This document shows, piece after piece, positions 8,474 to 51,597 of a stretch of 52,315 nt of DNA. The number at the start of each line of letters is the position of its first letter. Position 1 is the first letter of the stretch. A model generated the notes under the pieces. The model was given only the letters and a program-made list of their open reading frames with translations, did not search any database and was not told where the DNA came from. The position numbers and the translations under genes are program-made. This stretch comes from a virus (Duplodnaviria; Caudoviricetes), in the IMG/VR virus record IMGVR_UViG_3300038371_000007, positions 1 through 52,315 of that record. One strand, given 5' to 3'.

Positions 8474-8478
8474 TCGCT

Positions 8479-8902: not shown

Positions 8903-9328
8903 ATGACTAAGCTTGCAACCATGGGCACATCTTCCTGTGCCACCCTTGCCATCCAAGGTTTCACGGAGGGAGCTATCTTCCCCAACTACCAGAAGAACGA
9001 GGCTTACCTGAACGAGGGTAAGGGTAATGAAGAAAGAATGACAACGACGGTGGGTCGGTTCCTTTCCGATGTTCTGTGGCCTTTTGAGCAAGACCTCGGT
9101 CGTACAGACAACTACGCCTTCGATGAGCTGATGGATAAGTTGGAGCACCACGGGGTGCACAAGAAGTTCATCATCGCCACACTGAATGAGCACCAGACTC
9201 ACTTCAAGGATGGCTACTGGCCCAAGCGTCTTGAGGCACGGGGGTTCTCCCTCATCGACAAGACGAACAACGACGACGGCATGATTTGCTACATCTACAC
9301 ACGTAACGAGGCGAGGGTTGACCTGTGA
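8903..9328 (+). CDS. Hypothetical protein (possible degenerate GNAT-like fold)
   Basis: GAGGA RBS; IATLNEHQ...LEARGF C-terminal pattern. Confidence 0.75.
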   Translation: MTKLATMGTSSCATLAIQGFTEGAIFPNYQKNEAYLNEGKGNEERMTTTVGRFLSDVLWPFEQDLGRTDNYAFDELMDKLEHHGVHKKFIIATLNEHQTHFKDGYWPKRLEARGFSLIDKTNNDDGMICYIYTRNEARVDL

Positions 9329-10107: not shown

Positions 10108-10108
10108 T

Positions 10109-12399: not shown

Positions 12400-12401
12400 G
12401 A

Positions 12402-12983: not shown

Positions 12984-13800
12984 CAATAAGGTCATTGACT
13001 ACCTTGACCTGAGCCGGAAGCAGGGCAGCTTTGGGGTAGAGATTGAGATGGAGTTGAACAACTTCTTGGACACCCCTGCCGTTGATGAGCTCTATCAAAG
13101 CGGATGGAATGTGTGCAACGACGGGTCTCTTCGTGGCCCCTCCTGTGAGTTGGTCATGAGAACGCCTAAGAGCCTCACTGAGACCCATAACATGGTTAGT
13201 GATGTGTCCCACATCCTTAACCGACATGACCTGCACATCACGCCCTCCATCCGTGCTGGGGTACACATCCACATGAACATGCAGAGGTCCACCATTGGCG
13301 AGATGTTCAAGTTTCTTCTTGCCTACTACCCTCTGGAAACTGTACTGCTCCGTCAGTGTGGCTTCGGTCGTCAAGGTAATCTGTTCTGCCTGCGTGGACG
13401 GGACGCTGAGTATGTGTTCGAGGCGCTGGAGAATGCTGTAGAAGGAGAGAATCTCTACGACCTGAGAACTGACAGCCTTCGATACAGCGCCATGAACATT
13501 CAGTCGCTGTTCAAGTTTGGCTCTGTTGAGTTCCGTGCTCTTGCAACCACACCCTCGTTGGACAACATCACCAAGTGGTGCTCCATCATGCAGAAGCTGA
13601 AGGACTACTCCTCAAAGACAGCCACAAGCTGGGATGTAATTGGTAACATCTCGGGGGACGGGCCAGAGAACTACGTTCGTAACGTGCTGGGGGAAGACCT
13701 CGCATCTGAATTTATCTACGACGGGATGGCGGAGGACATCATGAAAGATGTACGTAATGTCCAGCGACTCGCATTCCTCCTCACAAGCAAAGGACTCTGA
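12976..13800 (+). CDS. Putative amidoligase (glutamine synthetase/GCS-like COOH-NH2 ligase)
   Basis: FGVEIEME, DGSL, ELV, GVHIHMN, RYSAMN, VEFR. Confidence 0.9.
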   Translation: MFNNKVIDYLDLSRKQGSFGVEIEMELNNFLDTPAVDELYQSGWNVCNDGSLRGPSCELVMRTPKSLTETHNMVSDVSHILNRHDLHITPSIRAGVHIHMNMQRSTIGEMFKFLLAYYPLETVLLRQCGFGRQGNLFCLRGRDAEYVFEALENAVEGENLYDLRTDSLRYSAMNIQSLFKFGSVEFRALATTPSLDNITKWCSIMQKLKDYSSKTATSWDVIGNISGDGPENYVRNVLGEDLASEFIYDGMAEDIMKDVRNVQRLAFLLTSKGL

Positions 13801-13801
13801 G

Positions 13802-14764
13802 ATGTTGTACTCGTATAAGCCGGGAAGTAAATCTGCCACTGCCCTCGCCACATCCCTCGGCATCAAGACTATCCGCCACAAGGGGTCTAAGTTCAAAGGC
13901 AGAGAAGACAAACTAATCATTAACTGGGGAGCAAGTGAAGTGCCCGAAGAAGTAAACAAATGCACTGTCGTTAACAACGCAGACAGCGTGAAGCTGGCAT
14001 CCAACAAACTTACATTCTTTCGTACAGTGAAAGACTACGTAAGTGTACCGGATTTCACAACCGACAAAGAAGAAGCCAAGGCTTGGTTCGACGATGGCAT
14101 TGCTGTTGTTGTTCGGGAGAAACTAACTGGCAACTCCGGCGAAGGCATTGTCATTCTGGATGACGACTTGCCGTGGGATCAGTACAACCACAGCAACGCC
14201 AAGATGTACGTGAAGTACGTAAAGAAGAAGGATGAATACCGTATCCACGTGGTGGATGGTGCTGTCATTGACAAGAGACGTAAGGCTTTGCGCAGTGACT
14301 TCCCCAAGTCTCGTGCCGACTTCCGTGTGCGTAACTACGACGGGGGGTTCATCTTTGCTCGTGACGGGTTTGAAGTTCCCACCTGTGTGGAGGAAGAGGC
14401 AGTGAAAGCTGTGCTTGCTTGTGGCTTGGACTTCGGTGCAGTGGATGTTGTGTGGAATAACTTCCATCAGAAAGCCTATGTACTTGAGGTGAACACTGCC
14501 CCTGGACTTGAAGGCTCCACTGTTGATAATTATGCAGCGGCCTTTGATGAAATGTTTAAGGACGAGGGGTACAGAGCACGTATTCGTGCTAAGCAGAAGG
14601 CGTATAAAGACCACAGGAGCGATAATTTGGCCAGCATTCTGGAGAGAATGCGTGAGGCTATGGAGCAGACTCATCCGGCCCAAGAGGTTGCCGAATCTAC
14701 CTCCGTCATGGGAGGTCCCGTACAAAATATCTGGCTCGGTAATGCTTCCTGGAACCCAGAGTAA
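13802..14764 (+). CDS. ATP-grasp peptide ligase (RimK/glutathione synthetase-like)
   Basis: GNSGEGI, EYRIHV, LDFGAVDVV, YVLEVNTAPGLEG. Confidence 0.9.
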   Translation: MLYSYKPGSKSATALATSLGIKTIRHKGSKFKGREDKLIINWGASEVPEEVNKCTVVNNADSVKLASNKLTFFRTVKDYVSVPDFTTDKEEAKAWFDDGIAVVVREKLTGNSGEGIVILDDDLPWDQYNHSNAKMYVKYVKKKDEYRIHVVDGAVIDKRRKALRSDFPKSRADFRVRNYDGGFIFARDGFEVPTCVEEEAVKAVLACGLDFGAVDVVWNNFHQKAYVLEVNTAPGLEGSTVDNYAAAFDEMFKDEGYRARIRAKQKAYKDHRSDNLASILERMREAMEQTHPAQEVAESTSVMGGPVQNIWLGNASWNPE

Positions 14765-18813: not shown

Positions 18814-18879
18814 ATGAACTATTATCCTTTTGTATTTTTCTCATTGGCGTTTCTAACTTTGGTAGTTCTTACGTCATGA
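18814..18879 (+). CDS. 21-aa hydrophobic peptide overlapping the DNA polymerase start
   Basis: TAAGGA RBS; MNYYPFVFFSLAFLTLVVLTS; ATGA overlap. Confidence 0.4.
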   Translation: MNYYPFVFFSLAFLTLVVLTS

Positions 18880-20735
18880 TCTTTGATGTCGAGAGCGACG
18901 GTCTCCTTGACGAAGCCACGAAGATCCACGTTCTTGCCTATGAGGTGGACGGAAAAGTTCATCACACCCACGACTACGAAGAGATGAGACGTATCCTCAC
19001 TAGCGCTAAGCTATTGATTGGACACAACATTATCCTATACGACATCCCTCTTGTTGAGAAGCTCCTCAACATTAAGGTGAAAGCCAGGCTGATAGACACC
19101 CTTCCCCTCTCGTGGTACTTGAATCACAACAGGGTGAGGCATGGTCTTGAGGTGTACGGGGAAGAGTATGGAGTACCGAAGCCTGTCATTGACAACTGGG
19201 AAAGTCTAACTCCTGAGGAGTATGCACACCGCTGTAGAGAAGATGTCAAGATTAATCTTCGCCTTTGGACTGACCTGAGAAAGAAACTCCTCCGTCTGTA
19301 TTCAGACAAGAGGGGGGCAGACAGGCTCATCAAGTACCTCACGTTCAAGATGGATTGTGTTCGTGAACAGGAGAGGAGTAGGTGGAAGGTTGACCTCGAC
19401 AAGGTTAGAAAGTCTCTGGGAGAACTCTACCTCATCAAGGAGGAAAAGGTTGAACAACTCAAGGAACACATGCCCCCTGTGCAGAAGTACAGGAAGGCAA
19501 GTCGTCCTAAGAAACCGTTCACCAAATCAGGAGACTACTCCGCTGTAGGTGCTAGGTGGTTTAAACACCTACGAGACTTGGGCTTGCCCGAGGACTACGA
19601 CGGAGAGATCCAGATTCCCAGCAAGGTGGAGCCGCCTAACCCCGGAAGTAGTGACCAAGTCAAAGACTGGCTCTTCACTCTGGGGTGGGTTCCTGCAAGC
19701 TTTGACTACAAGAAGAACGAGGATGGAAGCGAGAGGAAGGTTCCTCAAGTGAGAGTCCTTGACGGAGACAGGAACAAAGTGTTGTGCCCCTCCGTCCTTC
19801 GTCTCGTGGAAAAGCACCCAGAGGTTGAACTCCTTGATGGACTCACCGTTGTGTCTCACCGAATCTCCGTGCTTGAAGGGTTCCTGAAAAGCCACAAGAA
19901 TGGGTGGCTACAGGCGAGAGTTAATGGACTAACCAACACACTTCGCTTCAAACACAAAGAACTGGTGAACCTTCCGGGGGCAGCCAAGCCTTTCAGTGAA
20001 GCAATTAGGGGCAGCCTCATTGCACCAGAAGGACACGAGCTATGTGGTAGTGACATGTGCTCTCTTGAAAGTAACACCAAGAGACACTACATGTATCCAC
20101 ATGACCCTTCGTATGTAGAGGAGATGTCTAAGCCGGGCTTCGATGAACACCTCGACTTGGCTAAGCTGGCAGGTCGTGTGACCCAAGAACAAATCGACAA
20201 CTACAACAAAGGAATTGCAGATGTAGTTAAGAAACTAAAACCTGTGCGTGGCCTGTTCAAACCTGCAAACTACGCAGGTATTTATGGGGTGCGAGAGAAG
20301 ACGCTTAGCAGGCAAACGGGTATGCCTGAGAAGCAATGCAAAGAGCTTCTGGATATTTACTGGAAGCGTAACTGGTCCGTCAAGAAGATCGCCCAAGAAG
20401 TTGAGGTGAAGAAGGTTGACGGTGAGATGTGGTTGTTCAACCCTGTGTCTCAGCTTTGGTACTCTCTTCGTTATGAGAAAGATATTTTCTCTACACTCAA
20501 CCAAGGCACAGGGGTCTTCTGTTTTGACTCTTGGGTTCGTGAACTGCGTAACATGGGACTGGAGCTTACCGCTCAAATGCATGATGAAATTATTGTGCGT
20601 ATCAAGAGGGGTGACAGAGAGAGGACTAACGAGATACTTAAGGAGGCTATCCTGAAAGTGAACAATATACTTAAACTAAATGTTGACTTGGATGTTGACG
20701 TACAATTCGGGGATAGCTATGCGGAAATCCACTAA
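18876..20735 (+). CDS. DNA polymerase family A with 3'-5' exonuclease domain
   Basis: ExoI DVESDG, ExoII GHNI..YD, ExoIII CREDV; motif A GSDMCSLE, motif B KPANYAGIYG (Tyr at the 762-equivalent position), motif C MHDE. Confidence 0.96.
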   Translation: MIFDVESDGLLDEATKIHVLAYEVDGKVHHTHDYEEMRRILTSAKLLIGHNIILYDIPLVEKLLNIKVKARLIDTLPLSWYLNHNRVRHGLEVYGEEYGVPKPVIDNWESLTPEEYAHRCREDVKINLRLWTDLRKKLLRLYSDKRGADRLIKYLTFKMDCVREQERSRWKVDLDKVRKSLGELYLIKEEKVEQLKEHMPPVQKYRKASRPKKPFTKSGDYSAVGARWFKHLRDLGLPEDYDGEIQIPSKVEPPNPGSSDQVKDWLFTLGWVPASFDYKKNEDGSERKVPQVRVLDGDRNKVLCPSVLRLVEKHPEVELLDGLTVVSHRISVLEGFLKSHKNGWLQARVNGLTNTLRFKHKELVNLPGAAKPFSEAIRGSLIAPEGHELCGSDMCSLESNTKRHYMYPHDPSYVEEMSKPGFDEHLDLAKLAGRVTQEQIDNYNKGIADVVKKLKPVRGLFKPANYAGIYGVREKTLSRQTGMPEKQCKELLDIYWKRNWSVKKIAQEVEVKKVDGEMWLFNPVSQLWYSLRYEKDIFSTLNQGTGVFCFDSWVRELRNMGLELTAQMHDEIIVRIKRGDRERTNEILKEAILKVNNILKLNVDLDVDVQFGDSYAEIH

Positions 20736-21117
20736 TTGCGTTGTGCCAGAAGACGGACACAGGAATAGTGACGGATACGTAAGAGTTCTCGATAGGCCCA
20801 GAAAAGACGGGGGTAGGTTGGTAATGTTGCACCGTCTTGAGTGGGAGAAGATCAACGGACCTATCCCGGAGGGTCACGAGGTAAATCACAAGTGCAAGAA
20901 CAGGGAGTGTTGTAATGTGAACCACTTGGAAGTCTTGAGTAGGTCAGAGCATAAAAGCTTGGACAATGCTAAAAGATATAAAGGAAGAGAGGATTCAATC
21001 GTAGCATTCTTTATGAAGAGTGACGGGGTGCCTATGAAGTGTCTGTCTTCTGTAACAGGACTTCATGCAAACTCTCTAAGAAAGATGATTAACAGAAGGG
21101 TAACTAACCTTGAGTGA
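20719..21117 (+). CDS. Free-standing HNH homing endonuclease
   Basis: DGY...HRLEWE..NGPIPEGHEVNHKCKNRECCNVNHL; overlaps the end of the polymerase gene. Confidence 0.88.
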   Translation: MRKSTNCVVPEDGHRNSDGYVRVLDRPRKDGGRLVMLHRLEWEKINGPIPEGHEVNHKCKNRECCNVNHLEVLSRSEHKSLDNAKRYKGREDSIVAFFMKSDGVPMKCLSSVTGLHANSLRKMINRRVTNLE

Positions 21118-23100: not shown

Positions 23101-23297
23101 GAAAGGATCTACGTATTCAGGTGTTTTCTTCCTGTGACGGGCACAGTGTACAGGTTATCAACACTGATGAAAATAAGGTAGTTCACCACTCTTCGTGGGA
23201 CCATAACAATGCAGAGCTGGGCGCAGGAGGGGAGGTCAACTTCGTGAGACTTCTGGAGTGGTTAGGGTATGACGTCTACCATGAGGAGGTTTACTAG
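23097..23297 (+). CDS. Hypothetical protein
   Basis: GGAGG RBS; ATGA overlap. Confidence 0.65.
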   Translation: MRKDLRIQVFSSCDGHSVQVINTDENKVVHHSSWDHNNAELGAGGEVNFVRLLEWLGYDVYHEEVY

Positions 23298-24670
23298 TGC
23301 AGCCATTGCTAGACGCTGACGTGCTCCTGCACGAGCTGGGGTGGAGCGGGGAGTTCACGGACAAAGACACAGGAGAGGAGATGCTTCTGTCCTTTGAACA
23401 TGTGGCTAGCCTACTAGACGACAAGATTGATTTGATCTGTTACGAAGTAGAGGCCACTGAACCACCAATCCTATATGTCTCAGACTCAGAGGAGATTACT
23501 CGCCGCGTGAACAAGATGCTTAGATGGCAGGGTGAGCCAGAGCGTAAGTTCACGCCCAACTTTAGATACGAGGTGGCTACCACCAAGCCATACAAAGGTA
23601 CTCGTAAGAACCCTAAACCTTTTCACTTCTACAACATCCTGTTCTACATGATGGCCAACTACAAAGTTGTTCTATCTGAAGACGGGTTAGAGGCAGATGA
23701 TATGATGTGCATAGCTCAGATTGAGAATGCTAAAGAGTACGGGGTGAAGGTAGATACACACGCTGGCCCTCTGCTGATGGACTACGAAGACTGGCTTGTC
23801 TACGGAAACACTACCTTTATTAAGGATGACAAAGGGTACTTCATAAACGACACAGGTAAGGGACCTACAAGATCTGTGTGGTCTTTTCATCGAAAGGTGA
23901 TGGGAGACCCTGAAGGGTTGGTTGTAGATCACATCAATGGGGACACTCATGACTGTCGTAAGTACAACCTGAGAGTGTGTAGCGTTAAAGAAAACATCAG
24001 AAACTCAAAACCACAAGGCGGGACATCTAACTACAAGGGGGTGAGCTACGATAAGTCTCGTGATAAGTGGTCTGCCAGCATCAAGGTGGACAGAAAGTCG
24101 ATCCATCTGGGAAGGTTCTCTGGCGAAGAGGATGCCGCTAAGGCTTACGACTCGGCTGCTAAAGAATACTTCGGAGAGTTTGCCCGCCTTAACTTTGAGG
24201 CTCCGCACTTTAAGCCTTTTAAACAGACGGTCATTTGTTCTAGAGACAAGGACCTGAGGATGTGTCCCTTGCTACACTACTCTTGGGAGTGCGGCAATCA
24301 ACGAGCACTAGGCCCTACCTACACAGACGACATTGGTCATCTGGAAGAAATCATCACTAAGAAGACTGATGAGAAGACGGGCAAGGTGAAGATTGATAAG
24401 AAGATCTTGGGTTATGGCAAGTCCTTCTTCTACTACCAGATGCTGGTGGGAGATAGTGCAGACAACATTCCCGGCCTGCCTAAGTGGGGACACGTCAAAG
24501 CCTATGAACTATTGAAAGACCTTAAGACAGAGAGAGGCTTGTTCAAAGCTGTGCAGAAGGCATACATTGAAACGATGAAGCTAGATGCTAAGCGACACTT
24601 CAGAGAGCAGGCCTCACTACTTTGGATGGTCCAAGAAAAAGGAAAAGAATATGCAACACCTTCAAGATAA
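23297..24670 (+). CDS. 5'-3' exonuclease (T7 gp6/FEN-like) with an in-frame HNH-AP2 endonuclease insertion
   Basis: DAD, NFR..PYKGTR, EADD, SRDKDL and GDSADNIPGL FEN motifs; HRKVM..VDHINGD..NLR and YKGVS..W.A.I..HLGRF..AAKAYD..FGEFARLNF lie between EADD and SRDKDL. Confidence 0.9.
   Translation: MQPLLDADVLLHELGWSGEFTDKDTGEEMLLSFEHVASLLDDKIDLICYEVEATEPPILYVSDSEEITRRVNKMLRWQGEPERKFTPNFRYEVATTKPYKGTRKNPKPFHFYNILFYMMANYKVVLSEDGLEADDMMCIAQIENAKEYGVKVDTHAGPLLMDYEDWLVYGNTTFIKDDKGYFINDTGKGPTRSVWSFHRKVMGDPEGLVVDHINGDTHDCRKYNLRVCSVKENIRNSKPQGGTSNYKGVSYDKSRDKWSASIKVDRKSIHLGRFSGEEDAAKAYDSAAKEYFGEFARLNFEAPHFKPFKQTVICSRDKDLRMCPLLHYSWECGNQRALGPTYTDDIGHLEEIITKKTDEKTGKVKIDKKILGYGKSFFYYQMLVGDSADNIPGLPKWGHVKAYELLKDLKTERGLFKAVQKAYIETMKLDAKRHFREQASLLWMVQEKGKEYATPSR
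23730..24225 (+). mobile_element. HNH-AP2 homing endonuclease module fused in frame inside the exonuclease (boundaries approximate)
   Basis: Complete HNH and AP2 domains (~165 aa); no Hint motifs and no intron core. Confidence 0.8.
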
Positions 24671-24815
24671 AGTCCTGTTCCACATTTCTATGTGGGGGCA
24701 GGCAGCGCTAATGGGGGCAGGCCTTCTGGGCATTGCCGCCCACTACTCTACCTTCCTCGCCATTCTGATTGGTGGGGCTGTGACTGCGGCTACTTTGCTC
24801 TACGACGATGAGTGA
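24651..24815 (+). CDS. Small membrane protein
   Basis: AAGGA RBS; two hydrophobic segments. Confidence 0.6.
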   Translation: MQHLQDKVLFHISMWGQAALMGAGLLGIAAHYSTFLAILIGGAVTAATLLYDDE

Positions 24816-25221
24816 TAAGACTCGTTGTAATGGCAACTGGACAGAGGCAAGGTACAGGGGGTTCATTACCTCTGCCCTTCGCAGGGCCTCGGGGCGTTGG
24901 GCCCCCAAGACTACAGTGAAGTCTAAGGCCCGTGTCTCTCGTGGTTTCTACACCTGTGCCTCCTGCAAAGAGGAGGTGCCTGCCTCTCTCAAGACCGAGA
25001 AGGGCAGGGTTAACAACGTGTATGTTGACCACATTGACCCTGTAGTGGACCCCTCTGTGGGGTTCACAACATGGGATGATTTTATAGAAAGATTGTTTTG
25101 CGAAGAAGATAATTTGCAAGTCCTGTGTAAGGCTTGCCATGACGAGAAGTCGTCAAAGGAAAAAGAAATTGCCAAAGAGCGGAGAAGGAAAGAACGTGAT
25201 GCAACTAGAAACATTCAATGA
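24808..25221 (+). CDS. HNH endonuclease (Zn-binding, CxxC type)
   Basis: CASC...VDHIDPV...NLQVLCKACHDEKS. Confidence 0.88.
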   Translation: MSDKTRCNGNWTEARYRGFITSALRRASGRWAPKTTVKSKARVSRGFYTCASCKEEVPASLKTEKGRVNNVYVDHIDPVVDPSVGFTTWDDFIERLFCEEDNLQVLCKACHDEKSSKEKEIAKERRRKERDATRNIQ

Positions 25222-27867: not shown

Positions 27868-29637
27868 ATGACAGAACAAGTAGGTCCAACCATCCCCATT
27901 GCCGTTTGGGCAGACGAGGAAAAGTACAGGCAACCCGGAGAATCTTATAGCCAGAAGTGTGGCCGTGTTGCTGGTGCACTGTCCGATGATGAGAAGCATT
28001 ACGCTGTAACTAAGGGCATTCTGAAAAGCCAGATATTCCTGCCCGGAGGTAGGGTACAGAGTGCAGCAGGTTCTGTCCGTCAGACCACAGCATTCAATTG
28101 CTTCGTCATGCAGAAGGTGCCTGATAGCTTGGAAGGCATCATGAAGGTTGCACGTGAGGCAGCCGTAACCATGCAACTGGGAGGGGGTGTAGGTTATGAC
28201 TTCTCTGACATCCGTCCGAAAGGCGCTAGGATTAAGTCTCTTGGTTCTGCTGCTTCTGGACCTCTGTCTTTCATGGGGATCTTCGACGCTCTTTGTAAAA
28301 CTATTGCATCTGCTGGCCATCGTCGTGGTGCTCAGATGGGATGTATGCGAGTCGATCACCCTGACATCATGGAGTTCATCACAGCGAAGAACAACAGCGA
28401 CAATCTCACACAGTTCAACATCTCGGTACTCGTAACTGATAAGTTCATGACTGCGGTTAAGGAGGACGATGCCTTCGACTTGGTGTTTGAGGGCGAGGTG
28501 TACGACACTGTTAGAGCTCGTCACTTGTGGGATGTGATTCTTCGTAGCACATGGGAGTGGGCAGAGCCCGGTGTCATCTTCATCGACCGTGTGAACCAGA
28601 TGAACAACCTCTGGTACATTGAAGACATCTCAGCTACCAACCCTTGTGGGGAGCAACCTCTGCCCCCGTATGGCGCATGTCTGCTGGGGTCACACAATCT
28701 CACAAAGTTTGTGTACGAAGAGCCCAGTGGTTGCCGAGATGGGAGTTCTTCTCGTGTCTTCTCCTTTGACTGGGACAAGCTGAGAGAGGCCATCCCTCCC
28801 ATCGTTCGTATGATGGATAACGTCATTGACGAAACCATCTACCCCCTCCCTGAGCAAGAGGAGGAGGCGAAGAACAAGCGTCGCATGGGCCTTGGCATCA
28901 CAGGTCTGGGCAATGTTCTGGGGGCCCTCGGTATTCCGTACGGAAGCCCTGCTGCCAGAGAGTTCGTGAGTGATGTTATGAGGTTCTTGGCCAATGAGTG
29001 CTACAGAGCGTCCGCATTCCTCGCCAAAGAGAAGGGCCCGTTCCCTCTGTACGACGAGGAGAAGTACCTCAAAGGGGAGTTCATCAAAAAGCTGGACCCA
29101 GATGTGAGAGACGCCATTGCCTCCTACGGCATTCGTAACTCTCATCTCATCTCCATTGCACCCACTGGAACCATTAGCCTCACAGCTAACAACGTGTCGT
29201 CTGGCATTGAGCCTGTGTTCTCTCACAAGTACACTCGCACAGTACAGACACCCGATGGTCCTATGTACGAAGAGGTGGAAGACTACGCCTATCGTGAGTG
29301 GGGTATCGAGTGCGACACTGCCGATAGCATTCCTGTACAAGATCACGTAGCTATGCTGTGTGCTGCGCAGGAGTGGGTGGACAGTGCTTGTTCTAAGACC
29401 TGTAATGTTGGAGACGACGTTACATGGGAGGAGTTCAAGAGTGTCTACATGATGGCGTATGACGGGGGCGCTAAGGGTTGTACAACCTTCCGTGCCGCTG
29501 GTAAACGATTTGGCATTCTGAATGCTTCTGCTGCCGAAGAGGTGGTTGAACAGGAAGTCAAGTCTGATGAAGTGGAGGTGTCGGGCGGAGCCTGTTACAT
29601 TGACGTCGAGACGGGTATGCGGACTTGTGATATGTGA
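27868..29637 (+). CDS. nrdJ: Adenosylcobalamin-dependent (class II) ribonucleotide reductase
   Basis: FLPGGR, NCFV, GGGVG, RRGAQM, ATNPCGEQPL, APTGTIS, SKTCN; C-terminal CYID...RTC Cys pair; no nrdB nearby. Confidence 0.88.
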   Translation: MTEQVGPTIPIAVWADEEKYRQPGESYSQKCGRVAGALSDDEKHYAVTKGILKSQIFLPGGRVQSAAGSVRQTTAFNCFVMQKVPDSLEGIMKVAREAAVTMQLGGGVGYDFSDIRPKGARIKSLGSAASGPLSFMGIFDALCKTIASAGHRRGAQMGCMRVDHPDIMEFITAKNNSDNLTQFNISVLVTDKFMTAVKEDDAFDLVFEGEVYDTVRARHLWDVILRSTWEWAEPGVIFIDRVNQMNNLWYIEDISATNPCGEQPLPPYGACLLGSHNLTKFVYEEPSGCRDGSSSRVFSFDWDKLREAIPPIVRMMDNVIDETIYPLPEQEEEAKNKRRMGLGITGLGNVLGALGIPYGSPAAREFVSDVMRFLANECYRASAFLAKEKGPFPLYDEEKYLKGEFIKKLDPDVRDAIASYGIRNSHLISIAPTGTISLTANNVSSGIEPVFSHKYTRTVQTPDGPMYEEVEDYAYREWGIECDTADSIPVQDHVAMLCAAQEWVDSACSKTCNVGDDVTWEEFKSVYMMAYDGGAKGCTTFRAAGKRFGILNASAAEEVVEQEVKSDEVEVSGGACYIDVETGMRTCDM

Positions 29638-30119
29638 TGAAAGACTCATGTTGTATTTGCGACAAGCCTGCAAAGTCTAGGTGCACAGGAGAGAAAGGAG
29701 GGGCCGTCTACCACGGCCCCCTCTGCTCGGCTCACTACGAGAGGCTTAGACGGTGGGGAGACCCTACCTACTATCCCCCTCACAGATCTGATAAAGGCAA
29801 GACTAACAGAGATCCGAACAAAAGGTACAGTGATGGGGTTGATGGGTATGTTAAACTATTTCGTCCCGACCACCCAAACGCAGGGAAGGGAGGCTATGTA
29901 AGAGAGCATAGATATGTGATGTCTGAGCACATAGGGCGTCCACTCAAGAGCTCAGAGACGGTGCACCATATTAACGGGGACCGGTCTGATAATAGGATAG
30001 AAAATCTTGAACTTAGGGACGGACCCCACGGAAAGGGGGTTCGAGTGGAGGATAAGATTAAACAATCTATTGAATTTTTAAAACTGCATGGGTATGAATG
30101 CATTAGGAGTTGTGAATGA
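29637..30119 (+). CDS. Free-standing HNH homing endonuclease
   Basis: DGYV...HP.A..GYVREHRYVM...VHHINGDRSDNRIENL; N-terminal CxxC..CSAHY. Confidence 0.9.
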   Translation: MKDSCCICDKPAKSRCTGEKGGAVYHGPLCSAHYERLRRWGDPTYYPPHRSDKGKTNRDPNKRYSDGVDGYVKLFRPDHPNAGKGGYVREHRYVMSEHIGRPLKSSETVHHINGDRSDNRIENLELRDGPHGKGVRVEDKIKQSIEFLKLHGYECIRSCE

Positions 30120-43372: not shown

Positions 43373-46300
43373 TTATGGTACGATAGTTAGGGTGCCCCCG
43401 TTATTCCACACATCACCAGATGTGAGACCTGTAGCTGATGTGGGGAGGTTCCCTACGTTAAGACCGCTAGGTCTAAAAGTAACAGAGAGGTTAAACAAAG
43501 TCTCTGTCGTGTACGTAGTGGAGAACAGCCCAAACTGAGGCAGTGTTGCGTGGTTCTCAAGATCAGAGACTGTCGTGTGGATTGGAGTGAAGTCCTCAAA
43601 GTTAAGGAACCTCGCTTCCTGTTCTCCGACATTGATAGTCCCGCTAAGACCAGAGCCAAACAATGTAGTGTACGAGTACCCTGTGTCGATCTCTGCTGTG
43701 TCTCCTACAATGGCAAGGTTGCCACTAGCAGCGGGACGGAATGCAAAGACCTGCCATCCATCATGCACATTCTCCAGAGCCACCCTGCGGGTAGTTGCAG
43801 GGGTTGCAGGGATTGCACGAGTTTCGGTGTACGACAGAATTACCTGCACATCATTAATGGTGGGCAGTCCTGCGTTGACACGGGCATTCTCACTCACCCT
43901 GATACTCCGAGTGCTGGGATACCAGCGAACCTCTACTGTTAGGGTTTCACTCCCGTCACTCAACGTAAAGGTGGTGAACACTTCGTTCGTACCGCCTACC
44001 CCCGAGAGGGTTACTGAGTTGGCACCAAAGATGTTCCCGTTAGCGTGACCTCTGTAGTTGATGGTTATGGTCGTTGAGCTTGTTGGAATGTTCCTAGTGA
44101 AGAACAACTCATCAGACTCAGGCACCGGCACCCCATTCTGGAACGTAAGAGACGGGATCGTCTGCCAGATACCCGCACCAGATACGCGGCTTGAAGGGGC
44201 AGGATACACTGTCTCAGTGCTAGTACCTGCACTCTTGGCGGGGACAAACACGTTAGCGAAGAACGTACCATCCACGTAACTGATTAGGTCTCTGCCAGTA
44301 GACCCATCAAAAGCCGTTACGTAAGACGCTTGGTTTACGAACGCAGCCTCTGGCGGAATGTACAAAAGCTTTCGTTGAGACTGATTACCGCTAAGCTCGG
44401 ACAGGGGCCGGGATACCTTAGACCCCCCACTGCCTGCGTTCTCGTTAGGCTCATAGAACACTGTCTGGGAGGTATTAGTAGACCCAGCTAGGCCCCTGTT
44501 GTACGCCGTCGGGCTTACGTTTGGGGTGGACTCTTCCGTAACACTAGTGTTGTTGTCGAGAACATCAACTACTTCGTCAGGAAGGTTAAGAGCTGCATGA
44601 GCGAGTTCCGCATCAATTCTTTCTACGTCATCCTGTAGGTTACGAATGTCGTCAGGCCAGGCAACAACACGGGAGTTTTCAACCCTCTCTACCTCGTACA
44701 CGTGACCGGAGGTAAGTCCTGTCACCCGATAGACGAAGTAGGAAACCCCGTTAAAAGTCCTGCTCTCCCCCAGAGTAACTGCGGGGTCCGCATCAGCGAG
44801 GGCGGTGTCACTGCTGGTAGTGATGTTCCTCAGGGTGTACGCTATAGAGCCACCGGGGACAGCAACGAACAGAGACGTATTGCCACCAGTGAACCTTGGG
44901 TTATCTGCGCTCACTGCCTGCATAGTGGAAAGGTCTGAAGGGAAGTTATCAGACCCTGTGCTATCCAAGAACAACGCCGCCCCTTCAGGAGTATTCGTCT
45001 GAACAGTCTTGTACGGAGACAGGCGAGGCTGGATAGATTGGAGAGCCGCTCCGTCGTCATCAATCTCGTTAGCCAATCCGTCAATGCGAGTGTTCACCCG
45101 CTGTTCTGCCATCGCTGCTTGGTTGACAGCAATGTCAGTGACTGCTTGCCTGAGCGTACCGTCCAGTGTATTGAACAACCCCATAATAGTGAAAGAACCA
45201 ATGAAGGTCGCACCACGGAACTGGTAGTTCAAGGTGATGTTGCAGTTGGTGTTAAGGAAGGCGCTGTAGTCTTGGTTAGGAATGGTGATGTCTACAGAAG
45301 CAATGCCCGACTGAGGGTCAACCCCAGTGAGCGGGAATGTGAAGGTGTTACCACCCCCGTAGTCGAACACAATGTCTGTAAGGTCTGGCAGGAACCCCGA
45401 CTGCTGATTGGCTGAAAAGGATGCCATCAAGCTAAGTGTCCCGCCTCTAAGATCAGCAAACTGCAAGTTCTGGTTAGTGAAGGTGACAGAACGTGCTGTG
45501 CCCGGAGAAACCCCATCACTTGTGAAGTAGGGGAATGGACCAGCGGGGAGGCCACTCGACATGCTGTTGAAGCTGATGACGTTAGCCTCGTTAACGAAGA
45601 CGTTACGACTGGTGTCAAACCTCGTACCATCTCTCGTAACTTCATCGAAGAAGGCAATCTGCTCCATCGTGAGGCCGAAGTTATTCGTCTCAGGGATGAT
45701 GAGCCAGTCATCGCTCGTAGTGGTGAGGTCTGGGTTATTAACCTTTGAGACAATTACATCACCGCCACGGATCTCTGTACCAAAGTAAGTACCGCCCGTG
45801 TCTACGATGAAGGCTTCCCCTGCCTCAATAACTACACCTGCAAGCTCTGTAGAGATGGCGTTGATGTTAGAGACACGTAGTCTTTCGTGGAAAGTAAACA
45901 CACCATTAGGCAAGAGGGTGGACGCTGGGTCACGAGTGGCCCTGCTCTCCTGCCAGTTCTGCCCTGCTGCATCCTTGGTGAGTACAATTACGTCACCTTG
46001 GCTTATTCCAGTGTTTGCCCGAAGCCCTAGAGCAACCGTGTTGATCTGAGTTCCAGTGTCACCTGATTTTATTATGAAGTTAACGACGTTAGGACGACCA
46101 TCGGCAGGAGTGCGGTCTGTGCCGCCAAGGTGTGTGACCTCGATAGCGACCGGATACGACTCTCCAGATGTTGCAATCTCCGCGTCAGTCGGCAAGAGAA
46201 TATCAACCCTCTTGTTCACCCGGCCTGCCGCATAAATGCTGTTGACGTCGTTCCATTCAGCAAAGTTCGTTCCGTCGAGGGTAATCTCTTCGATGCGGAA

Positions 46301-47638
46301 GTTAACATTGCTGATGAGCGTACCGCCTGTGAAGGTACGGAATGCACGGAAGCTAGGTTGCCCCGGAACTACAATGCCACTGACTTGCGTCTGAAGGTTC
46401 TGAATTGCCTCTTGTACATCATCCCCAAGGGAAGAGAACCTCCCATCGCTGTTGTCGAAGGAGACGTCTGCTGCTGCAACATCCTCAGAAAGACTAATGG
46501 TCCCTGCTGCGTCGTCGTAGTTAACAGTAATTCCGCTGTGTGTACCACTAGTGAGCATGTCAGCGACAATATCTTGGATCGCCTCGTTAGTCAACAAGTC
46601 CGCCTCTGTCAGAACCCGCTCATCAACGATAGTCCAAAAACGAGTACCAAAGTAAGGAACATTCTGCCCCACGACGGTGAATCCAAGAGGGTCTGCATCT
46701 ACGTCTGTCTGAGTCGTGACCGAGCCAAGGATTGTGAAAGGTGTTGCATCTGGTGACAGAAGCCGGACATAAAGCTCTTGCCCTGTGTCCTGAAACGCTG
46801 GCTCTAGAGATGTGTCTAGAACAAAGTCAGATGTTCCGGAGCTTCCAGTCAGATCAAACACATTACCGTCTGCAATCTGTGCTGGCGTATGACTGCGGTA
46901 GATCACGCGAGCGTTAGCGTCTGCTCCTCCGTGGATCTGGATGTAGAACTTACCGCTTGTCCCACGAGTCACCCAGTTGTCGATAATTGCTTTAGTGATA
47001 TTGGTGAAGTTAAAGGCAAGTTCTGTGGTGGTGTGCGTGGTGTCAGTGCGGCCTTGGAAAACAACAGGGCCTTGACGTGCTGTCGCAAGCTCAATAGAGA
47101 ACGTACCTGTGCCTGCTGACGTAAGGGGCCTACTACCAATCAGAGCATAGACCTGATTGAACATGTCATAGGCGATGAACCTCCCTTGAGATGCAGAGAT
47201 CCGTAGGTTAAGGAAGTTTAGAGAGTTGTCTGGAATACCTAGAGACTTAGCACTCTCAATAAGAGTTGCTACTTCCCTCAGAGAGGAAGGGACAAGGGCC
47301 CCTCCTTGCACCATAGGGATTGTGCCATCAGGGGCATTAGGAATGTTAGCCATTCCGTCTCTGCCTGCAACACCACGGGAGGAGCTATTGTCCAGCCACT
47401 CTGTGCCCGCGTTGTTACGAACCTGATAGATGGCTACCCCGTCCCCGTTGTCGGTGTATTCGAGGATGATGTTGAGGGCTGTGTCTTGATTATACTGTGT
47501 AAGGTTTGCTGGGTTATTCGTGAAGTAGGTGTCTCGGGCAGACTCAGCCGCTGCACGAGTGGCCCCGGTGAATACATTTTGTGCAGGCCCTAGGGAGAAT
47601 CCACCCCCGCCCCCACGCCCTCTCGTCAAAGAAGCCAT
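43373..47638 (-). CDS. Large fibre/spike-like virion protein (1421 aa)
   Basis: Fibre motifs EAIQDIV..ML..GTHSGITV.YDD and DVQEAIQNL, coiled-coil segments, C-terminal NLPTSATGLTSGDVWNNGGTL. Confidence 0.7.
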   Translation of the reverse strand: MASLTRGRGGGGGFSLGPAQNVFTGATRAAAESARDTYFTNNPANLTQYNQDTALNIILEYTDNGDGVAIYQVRNNAGTEWLDNSSSRGVAGRDGMANIPNAPDGTIPMVQGGALVPSSLREVATLIESAKSLGIPDNSLNFLNLRISASQGRFIAYDMFNQVYALIGSRPLTSAGTGTFSIELATARQGPVVFQGRTDTTHTTTELAFNFTNITKAIIDNWVTRGTSGKFYIQIHGGADANARVIYRSHTPAQIADGNVFDLTGSSGTSDFVLDTSLEPAFQDTGQELYVRLLSPDATPFTILGSVTTQTDVDADPLGFTVVGQNVPYFGTRFWTIVDERVLTEADLLTNEAIQDIVADMLTSGTHSGITVNYDDAAGTISLSEDVAAADVSFDNSDGRFSSLGDDVQEAIQNLQTQVSGIVVPGQPSFRAFRTFTGGTLISNVNFRIEEITLDGTNFAEWNDVNSIYAAGRVNKRVDILLPTDAEIATSGESYPVAIEVTHLGGTDRTPADGRPNVVNFIIKSGDTGTQINTVALGLRANTGISQGDVIVLTKDAAGQNWQESRATRDPASTLLPNGVFTFHERLRVSNINAISTELAGVVIEAGEAFIVDTGGTYFGTEIRGGDVIVSKVNNPDLTTTSDDWLIIPETNNFGLTMEQIAFFDEVTRDGTRFDTSRNVFVNEANVISFNSMSSGLPAGPFPYFTSDGVSPGTARSVTFTNQNLQFADLRGGTLSLMASFSANQQSGFLPDLTDIVFDYGGGNTFTFPLTGVDPQSGIASVDITIPNQDYSAFLNTNCNITLNYQFRGATFIGSFTIMGLFNTLDGTLRQAVTDIAVNQAAMAEQRVNTRIDGLANEIDDDGAALQSIQPRLSPYKTVQTNTPEGAALFLDSTGSDNFPSDLSTMQAVSADNPRFTGGNTSLFVAVPGGSIAYTLRNITTSSDTALADADPAVTLGESRTFNGVSYFVYRVTGLTSGHVYEVERVENSRVVAWPDDIRNLQDDVERIDAELAHAALNLPDEVVDVLDNNTSVTEESTPNVSPTAYNRGLAGSTNTSQTVFYEPNENAGSGGSKVSRPLSELSGNQSQRKLLYIPPEAAFVNQASYVTAFDGSTGRDLISYVDGTFFANVFVPAKSAGTSTETVYPAPSSRVSGAGIWQTIPSLTFQNGVPVPESDELFFTRNIPTSSTTITINYRGHANGNIFGANSVTLSGVGGTNEVFTTFTLSDGSETLTVEVRWYPSTRSIRVSENARVNAGLPTINDVQVILSYTETRAIPATPATTRRVALENVHDGWQVFAFRPAASGNLAIVGDTAEIDTGYSYTTLFGSGLSGTINVGEQEARFLNFEDFTPIHTTVSDLENHATLPQFGLFSTTYTTETLFNLSVTFRPSGLNVGNLPTSATGLTSGDVWNNGGTLTIVP

Positions 47639-47919: not shown

Positions 47920-47953
47920 AGAAAGGGGGCCGCGCTTGCGGCCCCCTCTTTTT
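47920..47953 (-). terminator. Terminator/attenuator after the capsid-decoration genes
   Basis: 10-bp stem AGGGGGCCGC/GCGGCCCCCT with T tracts in both orientations. Confidence 0.85.
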
Positions 47954-48444
47954 TATGCCAGTTGGTCGCGGTCAGCGGCATCTGCTTGAATCGGACCACC
48001 AATCTCAGTGGCGTCCAGCAGACGAGCAAAGACCCGTACACGGCCAGCAGTGGCAACGGTGGTGGCAGCCTGTACGCGGACACTGATGGTGCCCTCAGAT
48101 GCGAACAGGGTGGGTGTGCCAGTGTTAGCCAGAGTGGCGTATGCGTCCGCAGAGGCGGTGTCAATGTTGAAGCCGTCAACGAAGGCATCGGTGTCACCAC
48201 CGTCTACACCAAGGTCGAGGACAGTGCCAGTACCGCCGGAGGCAGAGCCTTCCAGTTGCATACCAGCAAACATAACCACGACACCCGCAGGGATGGTCAG
48301 TGCATGGATGGAGTCAGTGGCTACCAGAGCAGAACCCTTAGCGGTTGCTGCATCTGCCAGATCAATGACGGTTTCCAGAAAGTATTCACGACGCTGGGGA
48401 TTACCCTGACCGCCGGATACAACGAGGGAGCTAATAGTAGCCAT
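47953..48444 (-). CDS. Capsid decoration / minor capsid protein
   Basis: Directly after the major capsid gene; AGGAG RBS; LDLG...D.FVDG motif. Confidence 0.7.
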   Translation of the reverse strand: MATISSLVVSGGQGNPQRREYFLETVIDLADAATAKGSALVATDSIHALTIPAGVVVMFAGMQLEGSASGGTGTVLDLGVDGGDTDAFVDGFNIDTASADAYATLANTGTPTLFASEGTISVRVQAATTVATAGRVRVFARLLDATEIGGPIQADAADRDQLA

Positions 48445-48473
48445 TCAATTATTCTCCTATAGGAATTAGTGGT

Positions 48474-48498
48474 ATGAGGGGGCCGTAGCCCCCGTCAT
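48474..48498 (-). promoter_or_regulatory. Stable cUACGg hairpin between the capsid and decoration genes
   Basis: ATGACGGGGGC-TACG-GCCCCCTCAT on the - strand; no U tract. Confidence 0.6.
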
Positions 48499-48504
48499 TA
48501 GTTA

Positions 48505-50506
48505 CTACGCAAGGTTGTACTTAGCGGTGACGATGGCTTCCGGACGCAGGATCTTACGACCGTACAGGTGCATACCACGTACGATGTCTGCGAAGGATTC
48601 AGGGTCACGGTAAGTCTCAGTCTGGTTGATCTGCTCAGCAGTTGCAACAGCAGAGTCATGGCCAGCTACCAGTACACCGAAGTTCTCGTTCTGGTTGGCA
48701 GTGCCAGTGGTGCCCGGACCAGTACCTACGACAGGAAGGTTGTTGGATACGTAGACCCGGAAACCGTTCCAGTTGTTCAGCATCAGACCGTTGCGCAGTG
48801 CGCCAGCCTCACCGTAATCTGCATCGAGGAAGCGAGAGTCTTCATCGCACAGGACTTCCCACAGAACCGGATCAACAACGAGCCAGCGGCCCATCTTGTC
48901 CACGAACTGTTGGTCAAGCAGACGACCCATACGGGTAATCACTTGGTGCGGGGAGACGTATGCAGTCGGCAGGGAGGTAGCACCCGGCAGACGAGGACCA
49001 ATCGGAATGGAGTGATCGCCAGCAGATGCAGTGGTGATCGAACCGAAGGAGTCCTTACGCAGCTTCATGGTGGGAAGCAGTTCGTCGCTGTCTGCGGTCG
49101 GGATGGCCCGTGTACCATTGACGGTGGTGTTAACCTCATCTGCGTTCACGTGCAGGCGAGACTGTGCATAACCGGACAGGTAGCCCAGAACCTCTTGGTC
49201 GTGCTGGTCAGCCAGTCGGTAGGCAGCACGGTTGGTTGCGAGGTCCATGAAGTTGACGTGCGAGTGCGCCTCTTCAATGTCGTCGATCTTGAAGGCGAAG
49301 TAGTTCGACTTATCAACGACCAGAGAGAAGTCCTCGTCGTCCAGATCTTGAGCAGTGATTTGAGTACCACGCTCGTACGGACGTACGGAGATTTCCGGTT
49401 CTTTGATGATTCGTACGGTGTCACCCTGTGCAGAGATCTCACCGAAATCAGTAATGTTATCGTAGAGATGTTTATTCTTCTACTTCTTTAGGTTTCCCTA
49501 AAGCTCGGACTATATCATCATCCACTCGAAAGTTAGGATGCTTCGCACTCTTGCGAAATACAAACTTCATAGCAGGGAGTATCTTATACGACATGCTTGG
49601 TATAATGTACTCTTGAACAGTGTTAACGAGGGAGAGGGTGGCTTGTGTAGCACCCCCCACGTCATACTTACCCTTAGACTTAAAACTCTTGGCATCAATA
49701 CCAAAAGAACCTTTAAGCCACTCCACAAGAATATTAGCTTCTTCCTCGCTACACTGGGTGCAGATACGGAAGCTGAGGGATGTAACCTCTCCTTGCTTAT
49801 TCTTGTTGGCCATAATACTTCCGTCGTCCATGTACCACAACGCTAAGCTGTGTGCATCCATGAAAGACAAAGCCTTCCGAGAAATCACTTTCTTCTTGTC
49901 CACTGGGTACAGAACCTTATGCATCTGCCGGAAGTACTTCCCGGACTTGCAAATCCTATAACCGTTGTAGGTCTTGCCAGTGGCCTTGAGTGTGTGCTTT
50001 GTGTTAGACACCTTAGGCTCTTTGCCCCCCAGTACACTTTTAAGCAATGCTGCTTTATGCTTAATGTAGTCGTACTGCTTTAGGCCATGCCCTATGATAA
50101 TCTCAGAAGATGTGTATGGGTACTTGCCATCCTTAAGTCTTTGCCTACAGGAGATGTGACCATCTCCGATAACGAGGCCGTATAGGATAGCTCTATTCTT
50201 ATTGTTCATCTATTCACCCTTTGCTAAAGCTGGGATCTGTGTTTGTACTTCGTAGTCTCTGAACCTTCCCCTCTCGGGGCTTGGCTGCTGATTAGCCTAT
50301 CCTCATCAAGACGTAGCCTTCCAGCAATTCACGAAGTTTTCGACACGCATTACTACGTGAAGGACCATTTATGTTTAGTCAGAGTTGGTAATGTCACCAA
50401 CAACTGTTGTTTTGCGGAAAGCCAGTTGAACCTTCTTGGAATAGATTACAGAGCTGAAATTACCCTGAGGAAGGTTGCCGTGGCCCGGTGCAGCTTGAAA
50501 TGCCAT
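48505..50506 (-). CDS. Major capsid protein, spliced: exon 1 50506-50377, exon 2 49448-48505 (357 aa)
   Basis: Joining the exons gives MAFQAAPGHGNLPQGNFSSVIYSKKVQLAFRKTTVVGDITNSD-Y-FGEISAQGDTVRIIKEPEI...DIVRGMHLYGRKILRPE; 130+944 nt = 358 codons; AAAGGA RBS. Confidence 0.92.
49449..50376 (-). mobile_element. Group I self-splicing intron (928 nt) in the major capsid gene
   Basis: Exon ends in U and intron ends in G; P1 GACU/GGUC with U-G pair; P AATTGCTGGAA (50329-50319), Q AATCAGCAGCCAA (50293-50281), R GTTCAGAGACTAC (50264-50252), S GATATAGTCC (~49516-49507). Confidence 0.93.
49472..50209 (-). CDS. Intron-encoded LAGLIDADG homing endonuclease
   Basis: ILYGLVIGDGHI and LALWYMDDGS motifs; C-terminal IIPSMSYKI. 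Confidence 0.92.
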   Translation of the reverse strand: MNNKNRAILYGLVIGDGHISCRQRLKDGKYPYTSSEIIIGHGLKQYDYIKHKAALLKSVLGGKEPKVSNTKHTLKATGKTYNGYRICKSGKYFRQMHKVLYPVDKKKVISRKALSFMDAHSLALWYMDDGSIMANKNKQGEVTSLSFRICTQCSEEEANILVEWLKGSFGIDAKSFKSKGKYDVGGATQATLSLVNTVQEYIIPSMSYKILPAMKFVFRKSAKHPNFRVDDDIVRALGKPKEVEE

Positions 50507-50538
50507 GTGTTTAATCCTTTATATTAGCATTTGTTTGT

Positions 50539-50684
50539 TACACAAAGTCCACGTCACGATAAGGCTGTCTGCTGCGGGTAGTCCATAAAGGGGCCGCTAC
50601 GTTCAGGTGGTTATCAGTCATGTTCTTGTGTATGTATAGAAGGCAAGGAAGAGAGGAGGGGTGGTCCATGTAGGGGCCCTCCTC
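50539..50684 (-). promoter_or_regulatory. Structured capsid mRNA leader with three CYAC/CC internal-loop motifs
   Basis: Stems at 50653-50684, 50574-50597 and 50558-50615, each with the same asymmetric loop. Confidence 0.65.
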
Positions 50685-50709
50685 CTTTTTGCGTTCTTAA
50701 TACGTCCAG

Positions 50710-51597
50710 TTAGCGTGCGCCACCGGACAGGTCATAATCAAATCGTCCTTCACGGATAGCTTCGTCAATCGCTTGCGCATTGCGTTCAAACCAACTATCT
50801 GAATTACGTTTGATCTGAGACTCAGAGTAGCGAGGCTTCTCATCTGTCTCGACTTTTGCGGGGGCCTTACTCTCAACAGCCTTGGCTGCTTCTTTCTGCT
50901 TAGCCTTCTTGGCATCGACAGTAAGACCATTTGCCATCTTGTACAAGTCAATGACACTAATCACTGCCTTGGGGTCGTCTGCATTCTCATACAGGGCATC
51001 TTGTACCCAACGAGACTGCTTCTCTACCCAGTCATGGAAGTCATCAGCATCACGCAGCTTGTCAAAATCTGGGTGTGCTTCGCGGATTTTGTTCTCCGCT
51101 TTCTTGCGACTGAACTCTGCTCGCTCTTCCTCAAGCTTATCAAAGCGAGAGTTGAGAGACTGTGCCTCTCGTTTAGCGATGGAAGTAACAATGGAACCCA
51201 CTTCGGGGTATTGCTTCAGCCATTCATCAATGTCCTCGTCAGACTTAGGAGCAACGATGGAAGGCTTAGTGTCCTCTAGCTCTTTGATCCGTTTCTTGAG
51301 GTCATCGGTGTGCTTTCGTAGATCTCCGTATCGCTTCTTGAAAGTTCGTTCTTCAGCAGAAGTCGGCTCAGGTTCCTGTGGTTCAGGCGTTCCTGCTTCT
51401 TCCTTCTCCGGCTCGGGGACGACTTGCTCTTCAGCGGGAGTCTCTTCTTCTTCATTGGCCTCGGGCTCCTCTCCTTTCATGAGTGCAGCGAGAGCGGCTT
51501 CTTCAGCCTCAATCTTTTTCTTTCGCTTTGCACGTGCGGAGGAAGGGTTAACGAAACCAGCAACCTTTGCGGGTTCTACAGCAGTTAGTTCAGGCAT
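50710..51597 (-). CDS. Capsid scaffolding protein
   Basis: Acidic coiled coil directly upstream of the major capsid gene; EERTFKKRYGDLRKH, HPDF, WVQDALYEN, YDLSGGAR. Confidence 0.85.
   Translation of the reverse strand: MPELTAVEPAKVAGFVNPSSARAKRKKKIEAEEAALAALMKGEEPEANEEEETPAEEQVVPEPEKEEAGTPEPQEPEPTSAEERTFKKRYGDLRKHTDDLKKRIKELEDTKPSIVAPKSDEDIDEWLKQYPEVGSIVTSIAKREAQSLNSRFDKLEEERAEFSRKKAENKIREAHPDFDKLRDADDFHDWVEKQSRWVQDALYENADDPKAVISVIDLYKMANGLTVDAKKAKQKEAAKAVESKAPAKVETDEKPRYSESQIKRNSDSWFERNAQAIDEAIREGRFDYDLSGGAR

Follow-up and report, generated by a model that had tools for sequence, protein, structure and literature searches.

A Predicted Group I Intron with a LAGLIDADG Endonuclease Gene in the Major Capsid Gene of a Marine Podophage

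Organization of the Interrupted Capsid Gene

We analyzed the IMG/VR virus record IMGVR_UViG_3300038371_000007, the entire length of which, 52,315 bases, is referred to below as the window (its completeness is estimated at 99%). The subject is a locus on the - strand, which carries the structural genes of the window, where the major capsid gene is split by an insert that has the signature of a group I intron and contains a LAGLIDADG endonuclease gene. The list of open reading frames (ORFs) has three entries at this locus: a capsid fragment of 247 amino acids (48505-49248), an ORF of 43 amino acids (50375-50506), and an ORF of 245 amino acids between them. A preliminary description, made from the sequence of this DNA, had noticed that the fragment is the only long capsid ORF, and this agrees with the list. 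The arrangement of the locus is as follows:

50506-50377, - strand: capsid exon 1, with the ATG at 50506, 43 codons, and U50377, the first base of the Tyr-44 codon
50376-49449, - strand: predicted group I intron of 928 nt, with A50376 as its first and G49449 as its last base
50209-49472, - strand: putative homing endonuclease gene, 245 amino acids, I-SceI-like LAGLIDADG type, stop codon at 49474-49472
49448-48505, - strand: capsid exon 2, with the remaining AU of the Tyr-44 codon followed by 313 codons and a stop (48507-48505)

The nearest kin of the capsid protein, and of the capsid region by DNA similarity, are the Roseobacter phages CRP-9, CRP-13 and CRP-1 and the Puniceispirillum phage HMO-2011; the exon 2 product is 69-77% identical to their capsids. 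It matches PF25209 (Phage_capsid_4) and is 76-77% identical to the CRP-13 and CRP-9 coat proteins across all 313 residues, and the 43-amino-acid ORF aligns with the N-terminus of the CRP-13 protein at 84% identity. The CRP-13 protein reads DITNSD-Y-FGEI across the site, and a single residue, Tyr, is left between the two exon matches. The last letters of exon 1 are GAC U (U50377), the insert closes with G (49449), and AU UUC (from 49448) opens exon 2. Therefore, U + AU rebuild a Tyr codon, and the joined frame of 43 + 1 + 313 = 357 codons equals in length the uninterrupted CRP-13 coat gene. These are the boundaries that the preliminary description had proposed, and both direct reading and the alignment with CRP-13 return them, with the same product of 357 amino acids.

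If it were not spliced, the message would meet a UAA formed by the last exon base and the first two intron bases, as had been stated earlier; this stop codon is found in all seven aligned copies of the insert (six of them distinct), each of which also starts with AAA and ends with G. Exon 2 has neither a start codon nor a Shine-Dalgarno motif at the junction; the first in-frame AUG lies 66 codons in (49248, Met-111), and there is no Shine-Dalgarno motif upstream of it. In the intron-bearing copies, exon 1 has a nonsynonymous divergence (pN) of 0.09-0.18 compared to a synonymous divergence (pS) of 0.54-0.90, the same regime as in exon 2, with the start codon and the frame kept. This purifying selection indicates that exon 1 is still translated within a functional protein, which requires exon ligation. 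Together with the missing start at the junction and the distant first AUG, it suggests that production of the capsid protein depends on splicing. The interrupted gene is identical in contigs of four DNA runs of one study, from which the DNA of the window may itself derive, and other copies come from other records; thus, the interruption is not an accident of assembly. We conclude that the sequences support the splitting of the major capsid gene by a group I intron with a LAGLIDADG gene, at the junctions given above, and that the intron is probably removed by splicing.

Ribozyme Structure and Covariation

The preliminary description had suggested an Rfam scan for group I introns. The scan gave one match in the window, to RF00028 (49486-50386, - strand; 63.6 bits against a gathering score of 50, E = 7e-14), which spans model positions 1-253, the full length; even a permissive Rfam scan gave no second group I intron in the window. 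The structure was drawn from the window sequence and tested on the seven aligned copies. It consists of the following helices:

P1, - strand: GACUA 50380-50376 with guide UGGUC 50367-50363; U50377-G50366 wobble at the 5' splice site
P2, - strand: hairpin 50359-50355 with 50348-50344, covarying
P3, - strand: 50337-50332 with 50252-50247 (ACUUCG/CGAAGU), enclosing P4, P5, P6, P6a and the 5' strand of P7
P4, - strand: 50326-50321 with 50291-50286
P5, - strand: 50318-50316 with 50296-50294
P6, - strand: 50284-50283 with 50265-50264
P6a, - strand: 50279-50276 with 50271-50268
P7, - strand: 5' strand 50257-50253, 3' strand 49512-49508; guanosine site
P8, - strand: 49540-49536 with 49523-49519, local hairpin
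P9, - strand: 49503-49497 with 49492-49486
P9.1, - strand: 49483-49479 with 49466-49462; stop codon of the endonuclease ORF within the loop

Every modelled helix is fully paired in the window, and the P/Q/R/S blocks agree with the Rfam consensus; P1, P3 and this core are as readable as had been claimed, and so are P4, P6 and P7. Among the six distinct copies, 96.9% of 318 cells are standard pairs, whereas shifting the 3' partners by 1-3 columns leaves 28-44%. It should be noted that derivation of the structure from one of the aligned sequences inflates the fraction of paired cells, leaving double changes unaffected. Such changes on both sides are found in 15 of the 53 pairs, and the observed covariation score was reached by none of 500 shuffles. 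In P1, 100% of cells are paired and the U-G wobble is invariant in all six distinct copies; the pair beside it is C-G in three of them, G-C in two and U-A in one, tracking the exon codon (GAC, GAG or GAU). The 5' splice site is thus fixed independently of the protein alignment. Double changes were also found in four of the five pairs of P2 (96.7% paired), in four pairs each of P9 and P9.1, and in P5 (two). P4, P6, P7 and P8 are 100% paired and invariant in this set, which makes them neutral evidence; because invariant helices are uninformative, the support for the ribozyme comes from Rfam and from P1, P2, P5, P9 and P9.1.

Three other placements were considered and rejected. The Rfam alignment puts P3' and P8 within the ORF; this was discarded because P3' has to come immediately after the 5' strand of P7, where the sequence does offer a perfect partner. 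A long-range P8 closing the ORF, sought by eye, was dropped since the candidate partners vary at synonymous sites without compensation. The same applies to hairpins seen by eye in the conserved block upstream of the AUG of the ORF (approximately 50233-50218), the partners of which also vary without compensation.

The Intron-Encoded Endonuclease

The ORF in the intron matches PF03161 (LAGLIDADG_2; residues 6-182, E = 5.5e-24, 85.4 bits against a cut-off of 25), which bears out the endonuclease assignment made earlier, and phrog_11023. Its sequence matches in the PDB are I-SceI and I-WcaI (E = 3e-7). An AlphaFold2 model based on 50 relatives (predicted local distance difference test, pLDDT, 90.6; predicted template modelling score, pTM, 0.84) has the pseudo-dimeric alpha-beta-beta-alpha-beta-beta-alpha LAGLIDADG fold, and its five best Foldseek matches are I-WcaI and I-SceI (E about 1e-12, TM 0.64-0.72, 22-24% identity); the bI3 maturase and I-AniI appear at ranks 6 and 18. 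There are two LAGLIDADG motifs, LYGLVIGDG (D16) and LALWYMDDG (D128, D129), each ending in an Asp, and we take D16 and D128/D129 to be the catalytic residues, by analogy with I-SceI. The triads G15-D16-G17 and D128-D129-G130 are invariant in the alignment of 50 sequences and present in 115-120 of 120 relatives, with D16 kept in 118, D128 in 120 and D129 in 119.

The ORF starts 167 nt into the insert, 37 nt past P3', runs across P8, the 3' strand of P7, and P9, and ends in the loop of P9.1, leaving 23 nt between its stop codon and the 3' splice site. Across the copies of the intron, the body of the ORF has a pN of 0.10-0.27 compared to a pS of 0.71-0.90; therefore, the endonuclease protein is under purifying selection. 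Synonymous divergence is lower, 0.04-0.39, in the last 22 codons, and there it does not exceed the nonsynonymous value; the protein tail that they encode is modelled as unstructured (pLDDT < 50 at residues 232-245). For these reasons, the last 22 codons are conserved as RNA, and the tail of the protein is a by-product. A search for a promoter of the endonuclease gene within the locus gave no sigma-70-like sites in 48300-50800 (mean of 2.4 in shuffles), a count that is uninformative because the phage has its own sigma-like gene.

Relatives with and without the Intron

A scan of viral contigs with exon 2 yielded 599 confirmed loci; the best 80 were used, one of which lacks exon 1 at a contig end, leaving 79. 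In 78 of these, the gap between the exon matches is 3 nt and always a Tyr codon (TAT in 41, TAC in 37), the sole exception being L081, with a gap of 921 nt. An endonuclease-seeded scan yielded five more loci with an insert at the codon-44 site (L085-L089) and one with an insert elsewhere (L090), and a profile scan added L092-L097, again at the codon-44 site. In a maximum-likelihood tree of exon 2 DNA (85 rows; L074 was omitted as partial), an 11-row clade (SH-aLRT 98) contains all seven intron-bearing rows; its other four rows lack the intron (L025, L079/L080, L083). The intron state requires at least three changes on this tree, compared to 6-7 in shuffles, and the well-supported branches force just one. 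Among close relatives, this is compatible with an old gain of the intron followed by losses, or with homing inside the clade.

The endonuclease family is much wider than this clade. In the protein collection, 179 relatives were found at E = 1e-3 or better, and all 120 of those listed carry PF03161; the profile scan gave at least 443 relatives in viral contigs. We inspected 81 loci (80 kept from the profile scan, and L089). A homologue of this same capsid gene flanks the ORF in 74 of them; in the remaining seven, no capsid flank reached E = 1e-3. In 44 loci, the ORF is at codon 44, in some cases within capsids only 23-33% identical to that of CRP-13, which suggests horizontal spread at the level of the family. 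In 21 loci (including L090 and several of L099-L131), it is at codon 61/62, right after the IIKEP codons and 52 nt downstream of the codon-44 site, and nine loci have it at other or unclear capsid positions. Rfam was applied to 19 such loci, and RF00028 was matched at E = 0.001 or better in 17, above the gathering score in seven. In L090 (1331-2204, codon 61/62 site), the P3-P7 core is nearly the same as in the window, the guide sequence is different, and the endonuclease is 41% identical. Two or three separate RF00028 matches per capsid homologue were found in L098, L099 and L105; one in L099 (89.7 bits, 2339-2591) lies where the capsid match breaks between residues 96 and 97. The locus in the window thus belongs to a large, apparently undescribed family of LAGLIDADG/group I introns specialized on one capsid gene family.

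Two minor observations concern these relatives. L087, which also bears the codon-44 intron, has a second RF00028 match (3172-3419, 60.1 bits) that begins within the last 12 capsid codons; the capsid ORF still ends at the usual ...KYNLA stop, and a Cys-rich ORF with a weak Endonuclease_7 match follows and runs off the locus. The protein P0011, which is 70% identical to the endonuclease, has the source name "recombination protein RecA", probably a mis-annotation.

Comparison with Known Systems

In the mycobacteriophage LittleE, the gene of the major capsid subunit has a group I intron with a LAGLIDADG-type ORF, and splicing was demonstrated by RT-PCR (PMC3706429). The two systems have in common a tailed phage, a capsid group I intron with a LAGLIDADG gene, an exon 1 ending in U and an intron ending in G (PMC3706429). 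They differ in that the LittleE ORF is on the opposite strand, is I-CreI-like and has 177 amino acids, in a siphovirus of an actinobacterial host (PMC3706429), whereas in the window, the ORF is on the sense strand and I-SceI-like, with two motifs, and splicing is predicted from sequence. A capsid gene intron of the lactococcal phage Tuc2009 is cited in the same paper (PMC3706429), and group I introns in the major capsid protein (MCP) gene of crAss-like phages of the Delta and Zeta groups were found via endonuclease domains in metagenomic genomes (PMC7886860). Some crAss-like genomes have several introns per gene (PMC7886860), as do L098, L099 and L105; however, these phages differ in order, capsid family and habitat (gut), and matches of the endonuclease to crAss-like records were all at 26-28% identity. 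The earlier remark that capsid introns are less common is a fair one, although there are these precedents (LittleE, Tuc2009 and crAss-like MCP genes; PMC3706429, PMC7886860). Capsid group I introns with LAGLIDADG genes are thus already published, and the intron in the window adds one more. In Bastillevirinae, one DNA polymerase intron has a LAGLIDADG_2 ORF of the same PHROG, 11023 (PMC11878797). One paper found for HMO-2011 mentions, as far as it was covered, only a possible DNA polymerase intron (PMC10580990); among the sources searched, represented largely by titles and the openings of abstracts and including few subscription journals, no published capsid intron was found for HMO-2011-type phages or roseophages.

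The closest relatives of the ribozyme are found in other genes. Its 5' half (P1 to P7/P3') is 84.4% identical over 133 nt to an intron in the RNA polymerase gene of the N4-like coliphage vB_EcoP-ZQ2, with Shigella phage Moonfish alike, and 80-83% identical over 92 nt to DNA polymerase introns of many FelixO1-like Salmonella/Escherichia phages. Altogether, 72 phage records match this half, and all 60 of those listed are outside capsid genes, in polymerase or terminase hosts. The ZQ2 intron encodes an HNH_3 + AP2 protein, as opposed to the LAGLIDADG protein in the window, and the ORF is downstream of a compact core (in L002, RF00028 at 460-703 and the ORF at 764-1408), as opposed to between P3' and P8. 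Because a similar ribozyme 5' half accompanies HNH enzymes in polymerase genes, the ribozyme and the endonuclease have separate histories as judged by these alignments. The mitochondrial LAGLIDADG_2 enzymes I-SceI and I-WcaI (PDB 1r7m, 6x1j) have the same fold as the phage enzyme and are likewise single chains with two motifs ending in acidic residues; the phage enzyme is 22-24% identical to them and differs by its unstructured tail of 22 residues, which is encoded by the ribozyme core.

Proposed Mechanism and Alternative Explanations

The ribozyme signature, the exact junctions, the covariation of helices, the fold and catalytic residues of the enzyme, and the purifying selection on exons and enzyme are properties of the sequences described above. 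We consider it highly probable that a mobile group I intron here interrupts the one major capsid gene of a marine podophage of the HMO-2011/CRP type, and that the intron is spliced as follows. The late capsid transcript would be made as a precursor, and ribosomes on exon 1 would halt at the UAA formed across the 5' splice site. The RNA would fold into the P1-P9.1 ribozyme, and free guanosine would attack after U50377, positioned in P1 by its U-G wobble with the internal guide. The released exon 1 would then attack just 3' of G49449, the last intron base, and ligation would give an mRNA for the full coat protein of 357 amino acids, with Tyr-44 formed from U + AU. The intron is also predicted to encode a monomeric I-SceI-like LAGLIDADG endonuclease. 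During co-infection with relatives whose capsid allele lacks the intron, this enzyme would cut that allele at the Tyr-44 site, and repair would copy the intron in (homing).

Several observations weigh against this model. The exon-joined form is absent from the contigs of the four DNA runs, and no RNA run containing the stretch was found; DNA contigs are, by their nature, silent on expression. P3 pairs perfectly in the window, but for the six distinct copies taken together its pairing is 75%, and one of its pairs is standard in the window alone. P10 (AAAU/AUUU), which the preliminary description rightly called no more than plausible, is perfect in the window and compensated in L086 (AAGU/ACUU), and it is complete in just three of the six distinct copies. 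The helix assignment from P3' onward is our own and departs from the Rfam alignment, and the intron is classified at the group I level. Finally, all seven close copies are in one capsid clade, for which the tree allows a single origin; hence, no recent homing is evident.

The strongest alternative, which we regard as unlikely, is that the intron is real and needs its own LAGLIDADG protein as a maturase, or a host factor; the intron protein would then gate production of the capsid. Proteins of this kind are the fungal mitochondrial bI3 and I-AniI maturases, and both are among the fold matches. The P3 mismatches in five of the six copies are consistent with such a need, as is an endonuclease kept intact by purifying selection over synonymous saturation in a clade with a seemingly vertical intron. 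However, the helices of the window are all fully paired, two plain endonucleases, I-WcaI and I-SceI, head the fold matches, and we know of no phage LAGLIDADG maturase. In addition, intron-less alleles are present in the same clade (four of the 11 rows), which alone is enough to keep a homing enzyme under selection.

It is very improbable that the insert is a decayed, non-splicing relic, with the capsid gene either broken in a defective genome or yielding a truncated coat protein of 247 amino acids from Met-111. No direct splicing data were found, which leaves room for such a relic, but the core helices are intact and covarying, exon 1 is under purifying selection in all intron-bearing copies, and residues 1-110 are conserved in all homologues. 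The AUG that a truncated protein would use is the one without a Shine-Dalgarno motif, and the high completeness of the record speaks against a defective genome. Other endonuclease ORFs of the window do lie beside or inside genes, yet the insert is hardly credible as an intein, or as a free-standing endonuclease gene on either side of which the capsid parts are translated separately: the UAA stands exactly at the upstream junction, the ORF begins well into the insert and is fused to neither exon, the Pfam search gave no Hint domain, the ORF is bracketed by a complete ribozyme core, and exon 2 lacks a start site at the junction.

We also considered whether the endonuclease is more than a selfish passenger, being either a weapon in co-infection or a maturase that times capsid synthesis. 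This is conceivable, though we think it doubtful; it was suggested by an enzyme kept intact over saturated synonymous divergence, a seemingly vertical intron, and a family of at least 443 members that is almost confined to this capsid gene, at two conserved motifs. As a weapon, the endonuclease may cut the capsid gene of intron-less rival phages, by analogy with an intron endonuclease of phage PhiPA3, for which interference competition was shown (PMC11620839). If either version were true, the gene of the most abundant virion protein in an abundant marine phage group would be a battleground of intron-borne nucleases.

Implications for Annotation and Evolution

The main value of the locus is in annotation and in the family-level pattern of two hot spots, a shared scaffold, and an ORF tail that doubles as the ribozyme core. 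Gene callers give just the 247-amino-acid capsid fragment here, and similar interrupted capsid genes in marine viromes will likewise be mis-called, or dropped from capsid-based surveys of HMO-2011-type diversity. The hot spots of the family are codon 44 and codon 61/62, with up to three introns per gene in relatives. The ribozyme scaffold shared with HNH enzymes in polymerase genes of enterobacterial phages is a clear case of independent exchange of ribozyme and endonuclease modules. The family also provides natural, diverged I-SceI-like enzymes with a known insertion site, so that their recognition sequences could be easily worked out.

Genome Setting and Other Endonuclease Genes

The capsid gene is flanked by two ORFs:

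50710-51597: ORF of 295 amino acids upstream of the capsid gene, function unknown, phrog_13678
47953-48444: ORF of 163 amino acids downstream of the capsid gene, no family match in Pfam or PHROG

The structural module also includes an ORF of 1421 amino acids (43373-47638, - strand) with no match in Pfam or PHROG. Counting the LAGLIDADG gene and an HNH-AP2 module, at least five homing-endonuclease-like genes are present in this 52-kb genome. The HNH_3 + AP2 module (residues ~192-309) lies in frame within a 5'-3' exonuclease, an ORF of 457 amino acids (23297-24670, + strand) that matches phrog_107 in two stretches and the C-terminal domain of Pfam 5_3_exonuc at 377-429. It could be an in-frame endonuclease insertion or an intron with a read-through ORF; Rfam gave no ribozyme at 23297-24670. 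Three further HNH-type endonuclease ORFs are on the + strand (20680-21117, 24808-25221 and 29634-30119), one of which overlaps the family A DNA polymerase ORF (18876-20735) at its 3' end, and another comes immediately after the ribonucleotide reductase gene (27868-29637).

In the early region, a cluster on the + strand (7450-14764) encodes a glutamine amidotransferase, a gamma-glutamyl cyclotransferase-like protein, a phiEco32-type COOH-NH2 ligase, an amidoligase and an ATP-grasp protein, and resembles a module for ligating peptides or small molecules. A match to the manA RNA motif (RF01745; 1564-1776, + strand) just missed the gathering score (51.1 compared to 55.2 bits, E = 3e-10), and it is located upstream of a tRNA gene (2928-3002).

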